DNA from: an uncultured archaeon
Lineage (GTDB): Archaea > Iainarchaeota > Iainarchaeia > Iainarchaeales > 0-14-0-20-30-16
DNA: 9,515 bases
NCBI GenBank assembly: GCA_964565125.1
Contig: CAZMCX010000027.1
Location: forward strand, 1-9,515
Reading direction: 5' to 3'
Made by a program: the position numbers and the translations under genes. The notes under the pieces are model-generated. The model was not told the DNA's origin. It did no database searches and saw only the letters and a list, made by a program, of their open reading frames with translations. Numbering within the stretch: position 1 is the first letter of the stretch; the number at the start of each line of letters is the position of its first letter. This document shows, one piece after another, positions 3,371-9,359 of this stretch.

Positions 3371-3398
3371 AAAAAAAGAGAGTAGACATCTCTACTCT
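3371..3398 (-). terminator. Hairpin plus T7 run ending the 311-aa/73-aa transcription unit
   Basis: The minus strand reads AGAGTAGA-GATG-TCTACTCT, an 8-bp perfect stem at 3379-3398, followed by C and T7 (A7 on the plus strand, 3371-3377). The 5' arm contains the TAG stop of the 73-aa ORF. Confidence 0.55.
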
Positions 3399-3613
3399 AT
3401 AAGCTCACCCAATTCTACTGTGTCATCTTGATCATTGGCGATAAATATATCATCCACCATAGACAAAGCTTCGGCCTCATTGTAATCCGCCTGTCCGCTT
3501 AGAGTATCTGATGTATCTTTTGTTGTGCTATCTTTACTTAAAGTAACTCCAAGCACCACTCCAATTACTACTAACACTATTAGCACTAATAATATTGCAA
3601 GCCAAGCTTTCAT
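3392..3613 (-). CDS. Small (73 aa) signal-anchor protein with an acidic C-terminal ectodomain, unknown function
   Basis: The N-terminal helix is strongly hydrophobic (AWLAILLVLIVLVVIGVVLGVTL). The tail is D/E-rich. Its ATG (3611-3613) overlaps the TGA (3610-3612) of the upstream gene as ATGA, which suggests translational coupling. A terminator hairpin sits at its stop codon. Confidence 0.6.
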   Translation of the reverse strand: MKAWLAILLVLIVLVVIGVVLGVTLSKDSTTKDTSDTLSGQADYNEAEALSMVDDIFIANDQDDTVELGELIE

Positions 3614-4545
3614 TCGGAATCACCTTCTACATTCAAATCTACTGAAACAGCTACTTCTGCATTTGAATCTTCGCTGTTGCCATCTTCTTCTCCAAACCAG
3701 TCATCTAATTTATCTTCTACTTTATTTTTTATTTTATCTTTTATTTTACCTTTAAGTTCTTGCTTTTTTTCTGAAATTTTCTTTTTTAATTCTTGTTTTA
3801 TTTCTTCTTTATTTTCTTCTATTTTCTGCTTTATTTCTGCTTTCTTTTCAGCAACCTTTGCTTTTACTTCTTTCTTTACTTTTCCATTGTAAGTTTGGGT
3901 TTTAACTTTTACTTCTTTTATTTTCCACATTAATTCTTTCTTTAATTCTTTTTGAAGACCGCCAAACATCTTTGCAATCTCGCTTCTCATTTCACCATAT
4001 GTTGCAGTACCCGCAGCAATTTTATCTAAAAGGCTTTGATTTTTTACTTCTAAATCTTCAAACAACTTTGCAGCCACTTCATAATTATATTTATTTTTGT
4101 TTTCTTTTATTTCTGCATCCAATTTTTCTACTGATGCTTTTTCCATTGCTTTATATTCATCCTTAATTGTGTTCTTTTCATCTGAGTTCAAATCTTTTGC
4201 GTAAGTCTTAAACTCTTGTGCTAAATCCATTGCTTTTTCTTTGTATGCAAGGAAGTCTTTAACCAAAAATTCTGGCTCTTTTCCAGTTACATCATACCCT
4301 GATACTTCCTCTTTTAGAGCTTTATATTCTGCAATTACTGTTGTTGCATTTTCATCCAAATATGGCAAAGCTAATTCACCAATCATAATATGTTTTTCCA
4401 TTGCTTTTTCCAGTTGTAACATTCTTACTTCTGCACCATTTGTATTTGTAAAATTAGTATATATTTTATCTTCATTAAATGCAAATGATGGTATTGCTAA
4501 TGCTACTACAAAAACCATTGCCAATAACAAATTCTTATAGTTCAT
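3610..4545 (-). CDS. Secreted 311-aa Lys/Glu-rich helical protein with an acidic C-terminal tail, unknown function
   Basis: The N-terminus is signal-peptide-like (MNYKNLLLAMVFVVALAIPSFAF). The body is long and helical, and its C-terminal third is low-complexity K/E (KKEVKAKVAEKKAEIKQKIEENKEEIKQELKKKISEKKQELKGKIKDKIKNKVEDK). It ends in an acidic tail (DDWFGEEDGNSEDSNAE...EGDSE). SD-like GGGGGTG (reverse complement of 4553-4559) lies 7 nt upstream of the ATG. Confidence 0.8.
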   Translation of the reverse strand: MNYKNLLLAMVFVVALAIPSFAFNEDKIYTNFTNTNGAEVRMLQLEKAMEKHIMIGELALPYLDENATTVIAEYKALKEEVSGYDVTGKEPEFLVKDFLAYKEKAMDLAQEFKTYAKDLNSDEKNTIKDEYKAMEKASVEKLDAEIKENKNKYNYEVAAKLFEDLEVKNQSLLDKIAAGTATYGEMRSEIAKMFGGLQKELKKELMWKIKEVKVKTQTYNGKVKKEVKAKVAEKKAEIKQKIEENKEEIKQELKKKISEKKQELKGKIKDKIKNKVEDKLDDWFGEEDGNSEDSNAEVAVSVDLNVEGDSE

Positions 4546-4732: not shown

Positions 4733-5437
4733 CTAGTCTAATAGAACAATAACATTAGACAACCCTTTACTTATTTTCTTAATAAGCCCTTTTTTTTCTA
4801 AACTTAAAAGGTTCCGTGATAATGAGGATTTAGGCAAGTTAAGTTCTTGCAGGATTTTATTCTGAGTTATTTGGCCTTTATTTTTCTTTACTAGATCCAA
4901 GATTTGTTTTTCCCTATCTGTTAAAAAAACCTCTTGCTTTACTTCTTTTTGCACAGACTTAGAAAAATATTTCTTATATCCAATATAACCCACGATGGAC
5001 AAAATAACTAATGCTCCAACAAGATATGCCCACCAATATGATTTCAATAAGGGATTTAAAAAAGAGTATTGCAATTTCAGGTTTAATTTCGAGTTCTCTC
5101 CAAATCCATTAATTATTATTTTATCCTCTTGTTTTATTTTCTGGAAACCAGAGATGTTTAGATAATTTATTTCAGTATTTTTTGGCATCCTTAATTCAAA
5201 AACATAGGACGAAAATATTTCATTAGAATCAAAATTAAAAACCCAAAGCCCATTATTTTTTGAGGTCAAATTTGAATTAAGCCCACTTTGTAAATCGGGG
5301 TAATCAGAATATCCACTTATCAAAACGTCTCCATTAGTTTGTACATCAAACACAACATCAGCATAATAAGAGAAAGAAATTCCCGCCAATAACAAAACAA
5401 ACAATGCTAATAGCCCAGTTTTATTCATAAAAATCAT
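4733..5437 (-). CDS. Membrane-tethered transcriptional regulator: signal/TM helix, ~110-aa ectodomain, TM helix, C-terminal winged helix-turn-helix
   Basis: The N-terminus has a hydrophobic segment (GLLALFVLLLAGISFSYYA). The middle domain looks beta-rich. A second TM helix, WWAYLVGALVILSIVGYIGY, covers residues 134-153. The cytoplasmic tail is LTDREKQILDLVKKNKGQITQNKILQELNLPKSSLSRNLLSLEKKGLIKKISKG, which looks MarR/TrmB-like wHTH. This architecture recalls the archaeal membrane-associated regulators I remember as COG2512. The start is either ATG 5437, which overlaps the upstream TGA as ATGA, or ATG 5428. Confidence 0.75.
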   Translation of the reverse strand: MIFMNKTGLLALFVLLLAGISFSYYADVVFDVQTNGDVLISGYSDYPDLQSGLNSNLTSKNNGLWVFNFDSNEIFSSYVFELRMPKNTEINYLNISGFQKIKQEDKIIINGFGENSKLNLKLQYSFLNPLLKSYWWAYLVGALVILSIVGYIGYKKYFSKSVQKEVKQEVFLTDREKQILDLVKKNKGQITQNKILQELNLPKSSLSRNLLSLEKKGLIKKISKGLSNVIVLLD

Positions 5438-6573
5438 TTTTGTTTTTCTAATATAGAATCTATTTCTTGCTCTAAAGTTATAAACTTATCATAAATAGAT
5501 TCATACCCTTTCCAACTGTTCTGATAAAGATAATAGTCATTATCTGTTATTACTTGTTTTATGTAGGATACACTTTCAGGCAGATATTCCCCATTTACAT
5601 AATATTCCACATCAAAAGTTGTGGGACCATATTTCATTCTACCCAAATATTGACCGGTTTGTGGTTCAACTAGCTCTGCCAAATCTAATTTGTTCAGATC
5701 TGACAAGTAATTTATTTTTTCTTTGGAAAACGCAATAACACAATGTCCCCCAAAAACATCTGCTTTGTTTGGATCTTTTAATACCCCGCATACAATATTA
5801 GGATAAATATACCCAACTTCAAGATTATGTTTTTTTGCGTTTGCATAATACCAAGAATTTGAATTATCTAAAAAGTAGTTCCCAGAATCAGAAATTACAA
5901 ATGCCTCAATACTTATTTCTTTATCAGAACATTTTTCAAGCAGATAATTTATTTCTGCTTTAAATAAAAGGGAAAAGTCTTCACAATCACCACCTTTGTT
6001 CTCCAAAAATTCATTAATAGAAATAAACTTGTCTGTTTTTCCTAAAGTTGTATCATCTTTGTATTCCAAGTTCATAAATTGTTCGTTCACTAAATTAAGG
6101 CAAGCTTCGGCAATATAACAAGAACCTGATTTTTCAGAATAACATTTAGAATCTAGCTTAGATTTTATTGATTTACTTTTTAAGGTTGCATTTTCTTTAA
6201 ACCAATCCAAAGAACTTTGCACCTCGATCTTGTAGCCATTTAATTCTTCTTTTGCGGAGTAAAGCTTAGAAGTTAGTTCCGCAGAGATATCTAGAGCTTT
6301 GTTGTATTCTAGGTTCAGGCCTTTATATTCTTCTACTAATTCATAGTACTTTGTTTGCAGTTCAGCATATTGTTTAGAAAGTTCTAAGTATTGCCCAGAA
6401 AGTAGGTTATAATCATCTAAAAGAGAACCATACTTAAAATTCAATAATTCATAATCACTAGTTAGCTTGTCATAATCAGATGATTTAACAAGATATAAAG
6501 CCACAACTAAGGCAATTACCAATATAGCAATAGAAAACAGAACAAAAATTATTACTTCAAGATATTTTTTCAT
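5434..6573 (-). CDS. Membrane-anchored extracellular transglutaminase-like / papain-fold cysteine enzyme with an N-terminal Tyr/Leu heptad coiled coil
   Basis: The N-terminal TM anchor is VIIFVLFSIAILVIALVVALYLV. Nine consecutive heptads follow, with Tyr at residues 34, 41, 48, 55, 62, 69, 76, 83 and 90. KGGDCEDFSLLF contains Cys197 (codon 5983-5985). FGGHCVIAF contains His277 (codon 5743-5745). LVEPQTG contains Glu303. This Cys..His..acid order and context matches the GDCEDY / H / D-P-T pattern I recall for transglutaminase-like cysteine proteinases (BTLCP / Transglut_core). Confidence 0.8.
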   Translation of the reverse strand: MKKYLEVIIFVLFSIAILVIALVVALYLVKSSDYDKLTSDYELLNFKYGSLLDDYNLLSGQYLELSKQYAELQTKYYELVEEYKGLNLEYNKALDISAELTSKLYSAKEELNGYKIEVQSSLDWFKENATLKSKSIKSKLDSKCYSEKSGSCYIAEACLNLVNEQFMNLEYKDDTTLGKTDKFISINEFLENKGGDCEDFSLLFKAEINYLLEKCSDKEISIEAFVISDSGNYFLDNSNSWYYANAKKHNLEVGYIYPNIVCGVLKDPNKADVFGGHCVIAFSKEKINYLSDLNKLDLAELVEPQTGQYLGRMKYGPTTFDVEYYVNGEYLPESVSYIKQVITDNDYYLYQNSWKGYESIYDKFITLEQEIDSILEKQK

Positions 6574-6591: not shown

Positions 6592-6606
6592 AAATATTTA
6601 AATTTT
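6592..6606 (-). promoter_or_regulatory. TATA-like element upstream of the 379-aa gene; possibly a leaderless transcript
   Basis: The minus strand reads AAAATTTAAATATTT, centred about 26 nt upstream of the ATG at 6573. No SD-like motif occurs in the intervening CGCCGACCAAAGTATATT. Confidence 0.3.
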
Positions 6607-6644: not shown

Positions 6645-7835
6645 TCATTTTTTAAAAGCAAGTAACCTTTTTGTTTCTTCAATATTAGTTTTTATTTTTT
6701 CTGCAAACTCTTTTGTTTTAGATTGTGTTTTTAAATACAAAGAAAACAGATGTTGCATCTGCTTTGAAAGGTATTTTAAGAATTCTTTCCTCATCTCTTC
6801 TATTGGTTTTTTTGACAAGATAACAATTCCAAATCCGACGATAAGATATAACCAAAAAGAAAATAATCTATCGATAATTACAACAGACAAAGCCAAAGTG
6901 CTGTTTATTCCTAAGATCGACGCAAGATAAACAAAGGATAGTTCATATGCACCCAAACCGCCTGGGAGCATACTTACATTACCTATTATTTCACACAAAG
7001 ACCATAATCCAAGAACTATAAAGAAATTTACTTCAACCCCAAACATCAAAAATACAAAGTAGATTCTTAGTGTACAGATAAATATTTTTAAAACAGATAA
7101 AAAAAGACTAAAAAATATTGTTTTAAAAGACAACATTTTCAAGTTTTTAAGTTCTTTGTAAAATAATGAAAGAATATTTTTTAAAAAATTAAACGCTATA
7201 GAATCAAAAAGTCTAATTTTTATATTAAATACTTTTATAAAATAATAAACTATTATTATTGAAAATATAAACAACAAAATCGCAAATACAATTAATACGA
7301 TTCTATCCATTACCGACGGGAATGGTAAAAGAGCTGAAGAAATCAGGCCAATAGTTAATACAGTCACAACATCAAAGATGTTTTCCATTGCTATAGACAA
7401 AATCACTTGTGAATACTGAATTTTGTAATAGTATTTTAGAATAATTATTCTAAATGCCTCTCCTAATGGTTTAGGTGGAATTCCTAAAGTTACCGCCAAA
7501 CCACAAAGATAATAATACATCTGTTTTAAAGAATACTTTTTTCCATTGTATAGTGAATATCTCAAAGACAATACAAAAAGTTGAACCGCCGACAATATAA
7601 AAAATAAAAGCAAATAATAAACATTAATTTTCCCGTAATTAAATATTTCAAAAAAGCCAAATTTAGAAAACAAATACAAAAAGATTGCAATTACAACTAA
7701 ATACAAAAAAACATATTTTCTAAAGTTAGTAAGAGAATCTACTTTTTTTGCAAAAGTAAAAAGTTTACTATTGAAGTTTTCAAGTATGTTTTCAAGTGAT
7801 CTTTTTGTTTGGGGCTTGCGAACCATAAAAATCAA
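6645..7835 (-). CDS. UPF0104 / LPG-synthase-TM-like (flippase-like) polytopic membrane protein; likely true start is ATG at 7826
   Basis: There are roughly 8 hydrophobic helices. The near-C-terminal segment NVSMLPGGLGAYELSFVYLASILGINSTLALSVVIIDRLFSFWLYLIVG matches the PGG(L/I)GxxE...R signature I recall for the UPF0104 family (PF03706). The track start at 7835 is a TTG directly abutting the upstream stop. An ATG follows 3 codons later (MVRKPQ...). Confidence 0.8.
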   Translation of the reverse strand: MIFMVRKPQTKRSLENILENFNSKLFTFAKKVDSLTNFRKYVFLYLVVIAIFLYLFSKFGFFEIFNYGKINVYYLLLFFILSAVQLFVLSLRYSLYNGKKYSLKQMYYYLCGLAVTLGIPPKPLGEAFRIIILKYYYKIQYSQVILSIAMENIFDVVTVLTIGLISSALLPFPSVMDRIVLIVFAILLFIFSIIIVYYFIKVFNIKIRLFDSIAFNFLKNILSLFYKELKNLKMLSFKTIFFSLFLSVLKIFICTLRIYFVFLMFGVEVNFFIVLGLWSLCEIIGNVSMLPGGLGAYELSFVYLASILGINSTLALSVVIIDRLFSFWLYLIVGFGIVILSKKPIEEMRKEFLKYLSKQMQHLFSLYLKTQSKTKEFAEKIKTNIEETKRLLAFKK

Positions 7836-8930
7836 TTAGAAAAACAAAAACTTCTTTTTAATTCCGCGTTCAATCATTTCAAAAGGATACGGTGTTACAC
7901 CATTGGTTTTTTTCTTATTCAACCTAGCAACAAGTTTGTCTAACTTATGTTCAGATAATGATTCCAAATCATATCTCTTCTTTGCTTTTACATCCAAATT
8001 ATTAAACAAAGAATCAAATAAAAAATTTTGCCTATTAAAATTAAATTTGTCTTTTAAGCCATACTTTGTTTTCTTTATTGTGTTTCTTACTATTTCATAT
8101 CCAATATCAACACTTTTCAAAGATTCAAAGAAGTTCTCTCCAGAAAGGTTATTAAATATTCCACCCGCACTGCCCAATAATAAAGCTTGATCTCCAACTA
8201 ATGTTTTCTTTCCATTATAATTTCCTATTTCTTTGTATTTTATTTCCCCATTAATATCGTAATTATTTTTCAAAACAAAATTATCTATACTGTCTTTAGA
8301 CATTTCAGAAGAAACGAAATACCCGGTTTTACTATCTATTGGACAAACAAACCTGTAAAGGCTCTTACACTCATTAGAAATAAAATAATCTATCACTTTG
8401 GGGTCAAACTTACCTTTTAACTGACAGTAAACCATTTTCTTTTTTGCCAAAGGATAATTGAAAAGTTTATCCCGCACATTTGAATAAAGACCATCACAAC
8501 CAATTATAACATCTGCTTTTCTTAAAGTTCCTTTTCCTTTTTCTTCAAAAAACACATTATTATTAGTTTTATTATAATCAAAAAATCTTGCGGAGTGAAC
8601 TACTTCTTTTCCTTTATGCTGAAGTTTTTTGTAAAGCAAGTATTCAAATGTAGACTTATCATAAATAGAATACATTCCACGTGTCTCTATTTCTGCAATT
8701 TTTCCATAAGGAGAATGGAACCTAACTAAGTCAACGTCATTAATTAAAGCAGAATTACCAATTTTTTTAAGGTCATATTTTTCTAAAAAAGAGTTATTCA
8801 ATACAACATAATCTCCTTGCTCGCCTAAGATCTCCGGTTTTCTATCAAAAATGTGGTAATCCAAAGAGAACTCTGAAAGATAATTAGCTAATCTTAACCC
8901 AACAACATTGGCCCCGATTATGTATATCAT
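7836..8930 (-). CDS. FAD/NAD(P)-binding oxidoreductase, geranylgeranyl-reductase-family-like, with divergent cofactor motifs
   Basis: The N-terminal Rossmann-like segment is IYIIGANVVGLRLANYL...YHIFD, where GxNxxG replaces GxGxxG but the terminal acidic residue is retained. VIIGCDGLYSNVR resembles the GADGxxSxxR motif. LVGDQALLLGSAGGIFNNLSGEN resembles GDAAG...P..GEG. AGGTG (reverse complement of 8937-8941) lies 6 nt upstream of the ATG. Confidence 0.6.
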   Translation of the reverse strand: MIYIIGANVVGLRLANYLSEFSLDYHIFDRKPEILGEQGDYVVLNNSFLEKYDLKKIGNSALINDVDLVRFHSPYGKIAEIETRGMYSIYDKSTFEYLLYKKLQHKGKEVVHSARFFDYNKTNNNVFFEEKGKGTLRKADVIIGCDGLYSNVRDKLFNYPLAKKKMVYCQLKGKFDPKVIDYFISNECKSLYRFVCPIDSKTGYFVSSEMSKDSIDNFVLKNNYDINGEIKYKEIGNYNGKKTLVGDQALLLGSAGGIFNNLSGENFFESLKSVDIGYEIVRNTIKKTKYGLKDKFNFNRQNFLFDSLFNNLDVKAKKRYDLESLSEHKLDKLVARLNKKKTNGVTPYPFEMIERGIKKKFLFF

Positions 8931-9215: not shown

Positions 9216-9359
9216 TGCCAAGGGGGAGACTTGAACTCCCGGCCTCCAGATTTCTCTCTGAAATCTGGTTTGTCTAATCATCGCTCGTAAAACAAGTTCA
9301 TAATTCATAACCACAAATAGTTATGAGTCTGGCGCTCCAACCAACTGAGCTACCTTGGC
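9216..9359 (-). tRNA. Elongator-type tRNA with anticodon CAU (Met, or Ile2 if C34 is modified), interrupted by a 70-nt intron at 37/38; no encoded CCA
   Basis: Hand-folded on the minus strand. The acceptor stem pairs GCCAAGG with CCTTGGC, followed by discriminator A. The D arm is GCTC-AGTTGGTTG-GAGC. The anticodon stem pairs CCAGA with TCTGG, with loop CTCATA|A (CAT at 9323-9325). The variable region is AGGCC. The T arm is GGGAG-TTCAAGT-CTCCC. Exon 1 is 9322-9359, the intron is 9252-9321 and exon 2 is 9216-9251. The boundary is ambiguous by 1 nt because an A flanks both junctions. It lacks the initiator hallmarks (A1:U72, and GGG/CCC in the anticodon stem). Confidence 0.85.
9252..9321 (-). 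other. tRNA intron (70 nt), canonical position, presumably spliced by an archaeal-type endonuclease
   Basis: The sequence is ACTATTTGTGGTTATGAATTATGAACTTGTTTTACGAGCGATGATTAGACAAACCAGATTTCAGAGAGAA. Removing it restores a standard 74-nt cloverleaf. C32-U33-C34 can pair with the GAG near the intron 3' end, flanked by A-rich unpaired bases. This approximates a relaxed bulge-helix-bulge, but I could not draw a perfect 3-4-3 BHB. Confidence 0.7.

Follow-up and report, generated by a model that had tools for sequence, protein, structure and literature searches.

A stalked, BTLCP/LapG-like cysteine enzyme family of DPANN archaea, predicted to be displayed on the cell surface

The window analysed here is a stretch of 9,515 nucleotides from an uncultured archaeon of the Iainarchaeota (assembly GCA_964565125.1, contig CAZMCX010000027.1). 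Its minus strand carries, at 5434–6573, a gene that we read as encoding a membrane-anchored, stalk-borne cysteine enzyme related to the transglutaminase-like cysteine proteinases of bacteria (BTLCPs), the family to which LapG belongs. BTLCP/LapG proteins correspond to COG3672 and to MEROPS family C93; Pfam covers them as PF06035 (DUF920), and structures are 4FGO and 4U65. An earlier note on this DNA had described the enzyme from the span 5434–6303, which takes in only residues 91–379 of the 379-residue protein. The gene and the features predicted within it are as follows.

5434–6573, minus strand: whole open reading frame, 379 residues plus stop, putative stalked BTLCP-like cysteine enzyme (open reading frame list, orthologue, family)
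6487–6555, minus strand: N-terminal signal anchor, residues ~7–29, with MKK on its N-terminal side, predicted N-in/C-out (hydropathy scan)
6223–6486, minus strand: predicted alpha-helical stalk, residues 30–117, the predicted helix continuing to residue 127 (AlphaFold2, heptad register)
6304–6474, minus strand: nine consecutive Y-x-x-L-x-x-x heptads from Tyr34 to Tyr90, with a Tyr/Leu a/d core (heptad register)
5437–6222, minus strand: predicted extracytoplasmic catalytic domain, transglutaminase/BTLCP-like, residues 118–379 (AlphaFold2 domain model, Foldseek, PDB profile search)
5977–6063, minus strand: stretch of the N-lobe with homology to the calcium loop and nucleophile box of BTLCPs, containing Tyr171, Asp174, Asp181 and Gly195-Asp196-Cys197-Glu198-Asp199 (hhalign, conservation)
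5983–5985, minus strand: codon of Cys197, predicted nucleophile, in the KGGDCEDFSLLF box that begins at residue 193 (conservation, alignment to the LapG Cys)
5743–5745, minus strand: codon of His277, predicted general base, in FGGHCVIAF from residue 274, on strand 274–283 (conservation)
5665–5667, minus strand: codon of Glu303, predicted third triad residue in place of the BTLCP Asp, in the invariant E-P-Q motif of LVEPQTG from residue 301 (conservation)
5440–5505, minus strand: C-terminal amphipathic helix, residues 357–378, preceded by the invariant Trp354 (AlphaFold2 secondary structure, conservation)

A word-indexed search recovered 46 relatives of the window protein, and a HMMER search of 1.84 billion representatives of 50%-identity clusters enlarged the family to 352 representatives at E ≤ 1e-3, of which at least 244 pass the stricter E ≤ 1e-10; with few exceptions they are 340–420 residues long. 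The closest named relative, 84% identical and syntenic, lies in a metagenome-assembled genome of 'Candidatus ainarchaeum sp.' (Iainarchaeota; DPANN kingdom Nanobdellati). Among the 80 loci listed from a scan of GTDB species genomes, 67 are archaeal relatives that cover the greater part of the protein or at least a large portion, labelled Iainarchaeota, Micrarchaeota, Woesearchaeota, Aenigmatarchaeota, Nanoarchaeota or plain 'archaeon', and in a few cases 'uncultured Methanosarcinales'; the other 13 are bacterial BTLCP genes that match part of the head only, mostly around residues 159–202. Six full-length members stand on third-party metagenome-assembled contigs labelled 'uncultured Methanosarcinales archaeon', and for these either the family reaches beyond DPANN or the labels or bins are wrong. 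Nearly all records of the family are without annotation ('hypothetical'), though one member has been named 'predicted transglutaminase-like cysteine proteinase' by JGI, and we found no account of the family in the literature on DPANN and transglutaminase(-like) proteins or cysteine proteases. CPR-C4 is a different, vasohibin-like family (PMC9108980).

Conservation across the family is concentrated at the predicted active site. In a 178-sequence alignment Cys197 is present in 178 of 178 sequences and His277 and Glu303 in 177 of 177 each, while the acids around the nucleophile are close to invariant (Asp196 177/178, Asp199 176/178, Glu198 169/178), as are, to a lesser degree, two acids upstream of it (Asp174 157/174, Asp181 164/175). 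Four further cysteines (Cys262 and Cys278, 177/177 each; Cys158, 173/174; Cys144, 172/173), Trp354 (176/176) and Asp346 (174/177) are held to a similar extent, and mean column identity is otherwise about 29–35%. Because the triad residues and their flanking acids are invariant while mean column identity is only about 29%, a chance resemblance of the motifs is excluded. The earlier note had picked out the three motifs around these residues as those of a transglutaminase-like Cys/His enzyme and had proposed looking for their conservation in homologues; the motifs lie where it had placed them, their predicted catalytic residues do not vary, and the enzyme class agrees with the LapG profile and Foldseek matches given below.

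Profile comparisons connect the family specifically to LapG. Searched against all PDB sequences, the family profile found LapG of Legionella pneumophila (4FGO) at E 2.1e-6, and once the stalk had been removed the significant matches (E < 0.01) were two LapG structures only, at E 2.6e-6 and 5.6e-3. Alignment of the family head with eight BTLCPs by hhalign gave a probability of 95.9% (E 5.7e-9), and with a set of 21 BTLCPs, gathered from plasmids and genomes and mainly from Pseudomonadota, a probability of 97.3% (E 2.3e-11) over residues 157–209, that is, the loop and the nucleophile helix. A profile search of a 5.8-billion-protein database stayed within the family and at its tail reached a 167-residue PF06035 protein (E 2.2e-4); a 44-residue LapG fragment searched against a large protein database returned no matches. 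The shared features are the nucleophile box GGDCED[FY] (GGDCEDF at residues 194–200 of the window protein), the Y..D......D loop upstream of it and the acids flanking the Cys. The earlier note had likened the GDCED(Y/F) box to that of BTLCP-type proteinases, and the likeness is borne out by LapG being the sole significant PDB match of the domain profile and by the 96–97% hhalign probabilities. Taken together, these results support the family as a distant and previously unclassified sister, DPANN-wide, of the bacterial BTLCP/LapG proteases.

The remaining two triad positions were mapped through a compact subfamily of 288–341 residues (sequences P0225–P0230), which retains the transmembrane anchor, the coiled coil, GDCED, HC and [FI]EPQTGE, and has neither most of the C-terminal beta elaboration nor the ITDxD motif. 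Its His-to-acid spacing is 15–16 residues, compared with 15–17 in BTLCPs and 26–27 in the main family. Against the BTLCP profile the compact members align with a probability of 97.1% (E 6.9e-11, 118 columns, hhalign), their His falling on the BTLCP His and the Glu of EPQ on the Asp of the BTLCP LDN, both with high posterior confidence, so that by sequence this subfamily bridges the main family and the bacterial proteins. The GHC and EPQTG motifs are the same in the main family; therefore Cys197-His277-Glu303 maps onto the Cys-His-Asp of LapG, and its assignment as the equivalent, predicted triad is supported. Two other candidates for the acid were rejected. 'YFLDN' (residues 233–237), which a BLASTP placement had offered as the BTLCP Asp motif, has an unconserved Asp236 and no preceding His; Asp346, in ITDxD, falls because the compact members are without that motif and keep EPQ.

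In secondary structure the predicted models fit this arrangement. The AlphaFold2 model of the full-length protein, built on a 44-sequence alignment, has a mean predicted local distance difference test score (pLDDT) of 92.4 and consists of one helix from residue 2 to 127 (pLDDT 83–97) followed by a compact alpha/beta head, and the domain-only model reaches a pLDDT of 93.9 and a predicted template modelling score of 0.91. Cys197 is the first residue of helix 197–214, His277 lies inside strand 274–283 and Glu303 comes just after strand 300–302, and in the models this placement fits the canonical fold, in which, as in LapG, the Cys stands at a helix N-terminus and the His in a strand, with the acid 15–17 residues on (in our family, in the compact members only). 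In a Foldseek search of the PDB with the domain-only model LapG (4fgo) ranks first, though weakly, with a probability of 0.99 and E 5e-3, and the probabilities of the LapG matches run from 0.95 to 0.99. Below it rank arylamine N-acetyltransferases, axonemal proteins, two putative proteases (3isr and 3kd4) and TglA; apart from the axonemal chains these are Cys-His-Asp proteins of the same fold class.

The earlier note had predicted a signal anchor and a stalk, and both are recovered. Residues ~7–29 are strongly hydrophobic (Kyte-Doolittle mean up to 3.4), and across the family an N-terminal hydrophobic 19-mer occurs in 154 of 164 scorable members and a later one in none, which we read as a type-II anchor with the remainder of the protein probably outside the cell. 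Between the anchor and the WFxxN motif at the start of the head lies a median of 93.5 residues (interquartile range 83–102). A continuous helix rises 0.15 nm per residue, and a stalk of ~95 residues would therefore be ~14 nm long. On the model and the heptad register it is probably a coiled coil. The 'tyrosine zipper' of the window protein's stalk is unusual: it is common to close relatives, distant relatives having mostly Leu, and no DNA tandem repeat underlies the Tyr heptads.

The cysteines bear on where the head resides. The window protein has seven in all (144, 152, 158, 197, 215, 262 and 278), and exactly seven are found in the ectodomain of 156 of 172 members. Cys152 and Cys215 occur together in 141 members and are missing together from 17, while 14 members have just one of the two (Fisher p = 1.6e-14, with no phylogenetic correction), and one member is without both Cys144 and Cys158. 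An odd number together with loss in pairs points to three disulfides plus a free nucleophile, which argues for an extracytoplasmic head; the pattern in the sequences suggests that these disulfides stabilise it. Where the earlier note had counted four extra cysteines (144, 152, 158 and 215), those four are present, and Cys262 and Cys278, which it left out, bring the total to six.

The acids around the nucleophile correspond to those that bind calcium in characterised relatives. In DvhG of Desulfovibrio vulgaris the residues flanking the nucleophile form a calcium site, and both the D316A/E318A variant, altered on either side of the nucleophile C317, and C317A are inactive (PMC13090378). In LapG of Pseudomonas fluorescens a second calcium ion is held by Asp111, which belongs to the 'calcium binding loop' (PMC4359373); this residue stands 24 residues before the nucleophile Cys135, and C135A is inactive (PMC3032545). 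Asp196 and Glu198, with Asp199, occupy the positions of the DvhG flanking acids; Asp174 precedes Cys197 by 23 residues and, with a single gap, is matched to the loop Asp of P. aeruginosa LapG, its equation with Asp111 presuming equal spacing in the P. fluorescens and P. aeruginosa proteins; and Asp181 is paired with the Asp in the 'DYWATP' motif of BTLCPs. From sequence, the cluster of Asp174, Asp181, Asp196, Glu198 and Asp199 probably binds Ca2+, and calcium dependence is a reasonable expectation because the calcium acids of LapG and DvhG are conserved in the family.

Set beside LapG as a whole, the family shares the predicted extracytoplasmic location and finds in LapG its best PDB match by both sequence and structure, and differs in several respects. 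It is archaeal, whereas LapG is bacterial; it carries an extra beta-sheet and C-terminal helix (residues ~308–379) and six conserved structural cysteines; and it has a transmembrane anchor and coiled-coil stalk where LapG has a cleaved signal peptide. In architecture DvhG offers a precedent, as a membrane-tethered BTLCP with an N-terminal transmembrane helix and a linker of ~180 residues (PMC13090378), and its D-C-E motif, calcium-binding and essential for activity, is present here too. The DvhG spacer is, however, predicted to be disordered, whereas our family has a rigid helix of ~95 residues with heptad periodicity, and DvhG keeps Cys-His-Asp and is encoded in an operon with an adhesin, a type I secretion system and a cyclic di-GMP receptor, whereas the present family is without a conserved partner.

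Around the gene, the window holds the following neighbours and signals.

7836–8930, minus strand: geranylgeranyl-reductase-family flavoprotein gene, upstream (Pfam/NCBIfam)
6645–7835, minus strand: flippase-like LPG_synthase_TM membrane protein gene, upstream (Pfam/NCBIfam)
6595–6602, minus strand: TTTAAATA, archaeal TATA-like element centred ~25 nucleotides upstream of the ATG of the enzyme gene (sequence reading, general archaeal promoter architecture)
4733–5437, minus strand: gene for a membrane-bound winged-helix protein (DUF7343/MarR_2), downstream, its start overlapping the stop of the enzyme gene (ATGA)

The two upstream genes abut without an intergenic gap, and the pair suggests a membrane-lipid module. 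Judging by its position, TTTAAATA may be a TATA box for a leaderless mRNA, in which case the enzyme gene would have its own promoter and be transcribed apart from the lipid genes. From its N-terminus, the downstream product carries a hydrophobic segment, then a stretch that is presumably extracellular, another hydrophobic segment and, at the C-terminus, a winged helix, and from this layout looks like a one-component transmembrane regulator; its gene adjoins the enzyme gene in 3 of 70 loci, those of the closest relatives. The same-strand arrangement as a whole is likewise common only to the closest relatives: in an open reading frame clustering over 70 family loci no neighbour family recurred in more than six, and distant homologues lie among unrelated genes. 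Farther along the minus strand are a Lys/Glu-rich, probably secreted helical protein of 311 residues (3610–4545), the stop of whose gene overlaps the start of the next, and a single-pass membrane protein of 73 residues (3392–3613), neither with a significant family match. A tRNA at 9216–9359, also on the minus strand, scores 57.4 bits in Rfam and was not reported by ARAGORN in bacterial mode; its match spans 144 nucleotides for a 71-position model, probably because of a long intron or insert.

Our preferred reading, to which we give a probability of about 55%, is that the protein is a type-II anchored, stalk-displayed and probably Ca2+-dependent Cys-His-Glu cysteine peptidase, a DPANN sister of BTLCP/LapG, that acts on surface proteins. 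A single N-terminal helix would serve as the membrane anchor, and the ~95-residue helical stalk, probably a coiled coil, would position the head ~14 nm off the membrane, where three disulfides would probably keep it stable. Cys197 would act as nucleophile, His277 as general base and Glu303 as the acid that orients it, with the acidic cluster near the nucleophile probably binding Ca2+, as its counterparts do in LapG and DvhG. On the example of these two, the likeliest job would be site-specific cleavage of the cell's own surface proteins, in the maturation or release of adhesins or of the S-layer; LapG is a calcium-dependent protease whose cut in a surface adhesin falls at a di-alanine site. 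Homology, conservation and the predicted fold and architecture are what the analysis shows, whereas topology, disulfides, Ca2+ dependence, the substrate and a peptidase rather than a transferase chemistry are inferred.

Several results weigh against this reading. No Pfam or NCBIfam model reached its cut-off on the window protein: Transglut_core (PF01841) scored 13.9–14.1 bits against a cut-off of 23, over residues 159–205 only, the NCBIfam LapG model (CystProtLapG, NF045674) scored 13.5 bits against 320, and for PF06035 neither the window protein nor any of 30 domain-only members gave a match at E ≤ 1. Family-wide, Transglut_core appeared below threshold in 4 of 44 members, and the best E among matches to Transglut_core and DUF553 was 2.7e-4 for whole proteins. 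The significant BTLCP alignment of the main family is confined to ~50 residues of the N-lobe, and neither a forced hhalign alignment (mact 0.01) nor one of the C-lobe alone made the C-lobe match BTLCPs significantly. The C-lobe fails to align because insertions lengthen both spacings: a beta-rich insertion of ~45 residues separates the Cys helix from the His strand, making the Cys-to-His distance ~80 residues in the main family versus 34–35 in BTLCPs, and ~10 extra residues lie between His and acid. The third triad position is Glu where BTLCPs have Asp, outside the literal Cys-His-Asp definition. Foldseek found nothing in the PDB at E ≤ 1e-3, the template modelling scores to LapG are only 0.28 (query-normalised) and 0.38–0.41 (target-normalised), and the head exceeds LapG by ~80 residues; it is thus a much-elaborated version of the fold and not a close structural copy. 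At the 70 loci there is no LapD-like partner, type I secretion system, adhesin or other conserved neighbour that would point to a substrate. The fold, moreover, also allows transamidation, deamidation and acyl transfer, so that peptidase chemistry is an inference. The family thus falls below the curated BTLCP and Transglut_core thresholds and outside the literal triad definition, yet its nucleophile box and calcium acids are retained, as are the positions of the His and the acid. The searches that the earlier note had recommended divide in the same way: PF01841 stays sub-threshold and PF06035 and the Pei family go unreported, while profile searches do find LapG and structure searches find it weakly.

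Among the alternatives, a true transglutaminase or an enzyme that forms or breaks isopeptide bonds, which would cross-link or un-cross-link the DPANN cell's own envelope proteins, of the S-layer or otherwise, and not act as an endopeptidase, stands next in our estimate. A Cys-His-acid triad is compatible with both hydrolase and transglutaminase chemistry, and the stalk would bring the head to the level expected of an S-layer. Transglut_core and DUF553 (PF04473, 'transglutaminase-like') are the only Pfam families that recur among the 30 domain-only members, each in 5 of 30 and sub-threshold; these weak matches sit on the Cys-helix region, none covers the His/acid region, and the likeness is otherwise one of fold class, through the Foldseek matches 3isr, 3kd4 and TglA. 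Foldseek gave no significant match to a bona fide transglutaminase, however, TglA appearing only at E ~0.7–1.2, and the specific, significant sequence links go to BTLCP/LapG, a hydrolase (PMC3032545), so we think this possible but unlikely. The proposal of the earlier note that such an enzyme might act on a host envelope fares less well. It had supposed an episymbiotic small-genome archaeon, and the organism is a DPANN archaeon. The comparison it drew was with the phage pseudomurein endoisopeptidases (such as PeiW and PeiP), which have a transglutaminase fold (MEROPS C71), and a host-directed, offensive isopeptidase or protease that opens the host envelope would fit display on a ~14 nm stalk and a family confined to DPANN lineages, those in cultivation being ectosymbionts (PMC11291902). 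Likeness to the Pei enzymes, which do act on an archaeal envelope, goes no further than the general Cys-His-Asp transglutaminase-like fold class, though: the window protein and the 30 domain-only members had no Pfam match to Pei-type catalytic domains or pseudomurein-binding repeats, and the viral structure library BFVD, whose content of PeiW/PeiP models was not verified, yielded no match at E ≤ 1e-3 and none that is named as a Pei. Pseudomurein is also limited to Methanobacteriales and Methanopyrales (PMC10117817), and the family occurs in five DPANN phyla, whose hosts would be unlikely to share one envelope polymer. We therefore regard a host-directed enzyme as improbable.

A non-protein substrate seems to us more doubtful still. 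The enzyme would then be an amidase or acyltransferase working on a lipid head-group or a glycan together with the adjacent flippase-like and geranylgeranyl reductase genes, which precede it on the same strand both in the window and in its closest relative, and arylamine N-acetyltransferases, enzymes of acyl transfer, are indeed among the top Foldseek matches. But that neighbourhood is not conserved, with no neighbour family in more than 6 of 70 loci, the sequence link is to BTLCPs and not to N-acetyltransferases, and acetyl-CoA-type donors are not known to be available outside the cell. Least credible of all is that the motifs arose by chance or that the gene encodes a structural stalk protein that lacks catalytic activity; curated models and Foldseek do return sub-threshold matches only, but a triad and flanking acids invariant in ~178 sequences effectively refute this, and profile-profile E-values lie between 1e-9 and 1e-11.

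The surface-protein peptidase that we prefer could be taken a step further, to a DPANN-wide, calcium-gated 'stalked scissor', a LapG-like protease that a rigid coiled coil would keep at the S-layer or at the interface between symbiont and host and that would cut the cell's own adhesins or host surface proteins and so control attachment and release. We hold this version to be speculative and rather unlikely; if true, it would be an archaeal counterpart, independent of cyclic di-GMP, to the Lap adhesion switch of bacteria.

Physical contact with a host is something that DPANN archaea rely on, and an activity has been predicted for few of the surface proteins that they conserve. The present family spans at least five DPANN phyla, almost wholly without annotation, and comes with a predicted active site (C197, H277, E303 and the D-C-E-D calcium box). 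Should it prove to be a housekeeping envelope protease only, this would be a useful annotation and no surprise, and the chemistry itself is not surprising; for DPANN surface biology the family is a useful lead. If it is a protease that processes surface proteins, it would carry the LapG-type family over from bacteria to archaea, in a form that has a Cys-His-Glu triad and a stalked architecture not seen before, and would offer a handle on how DPANN cells build and remodel their envelope and their attachments.

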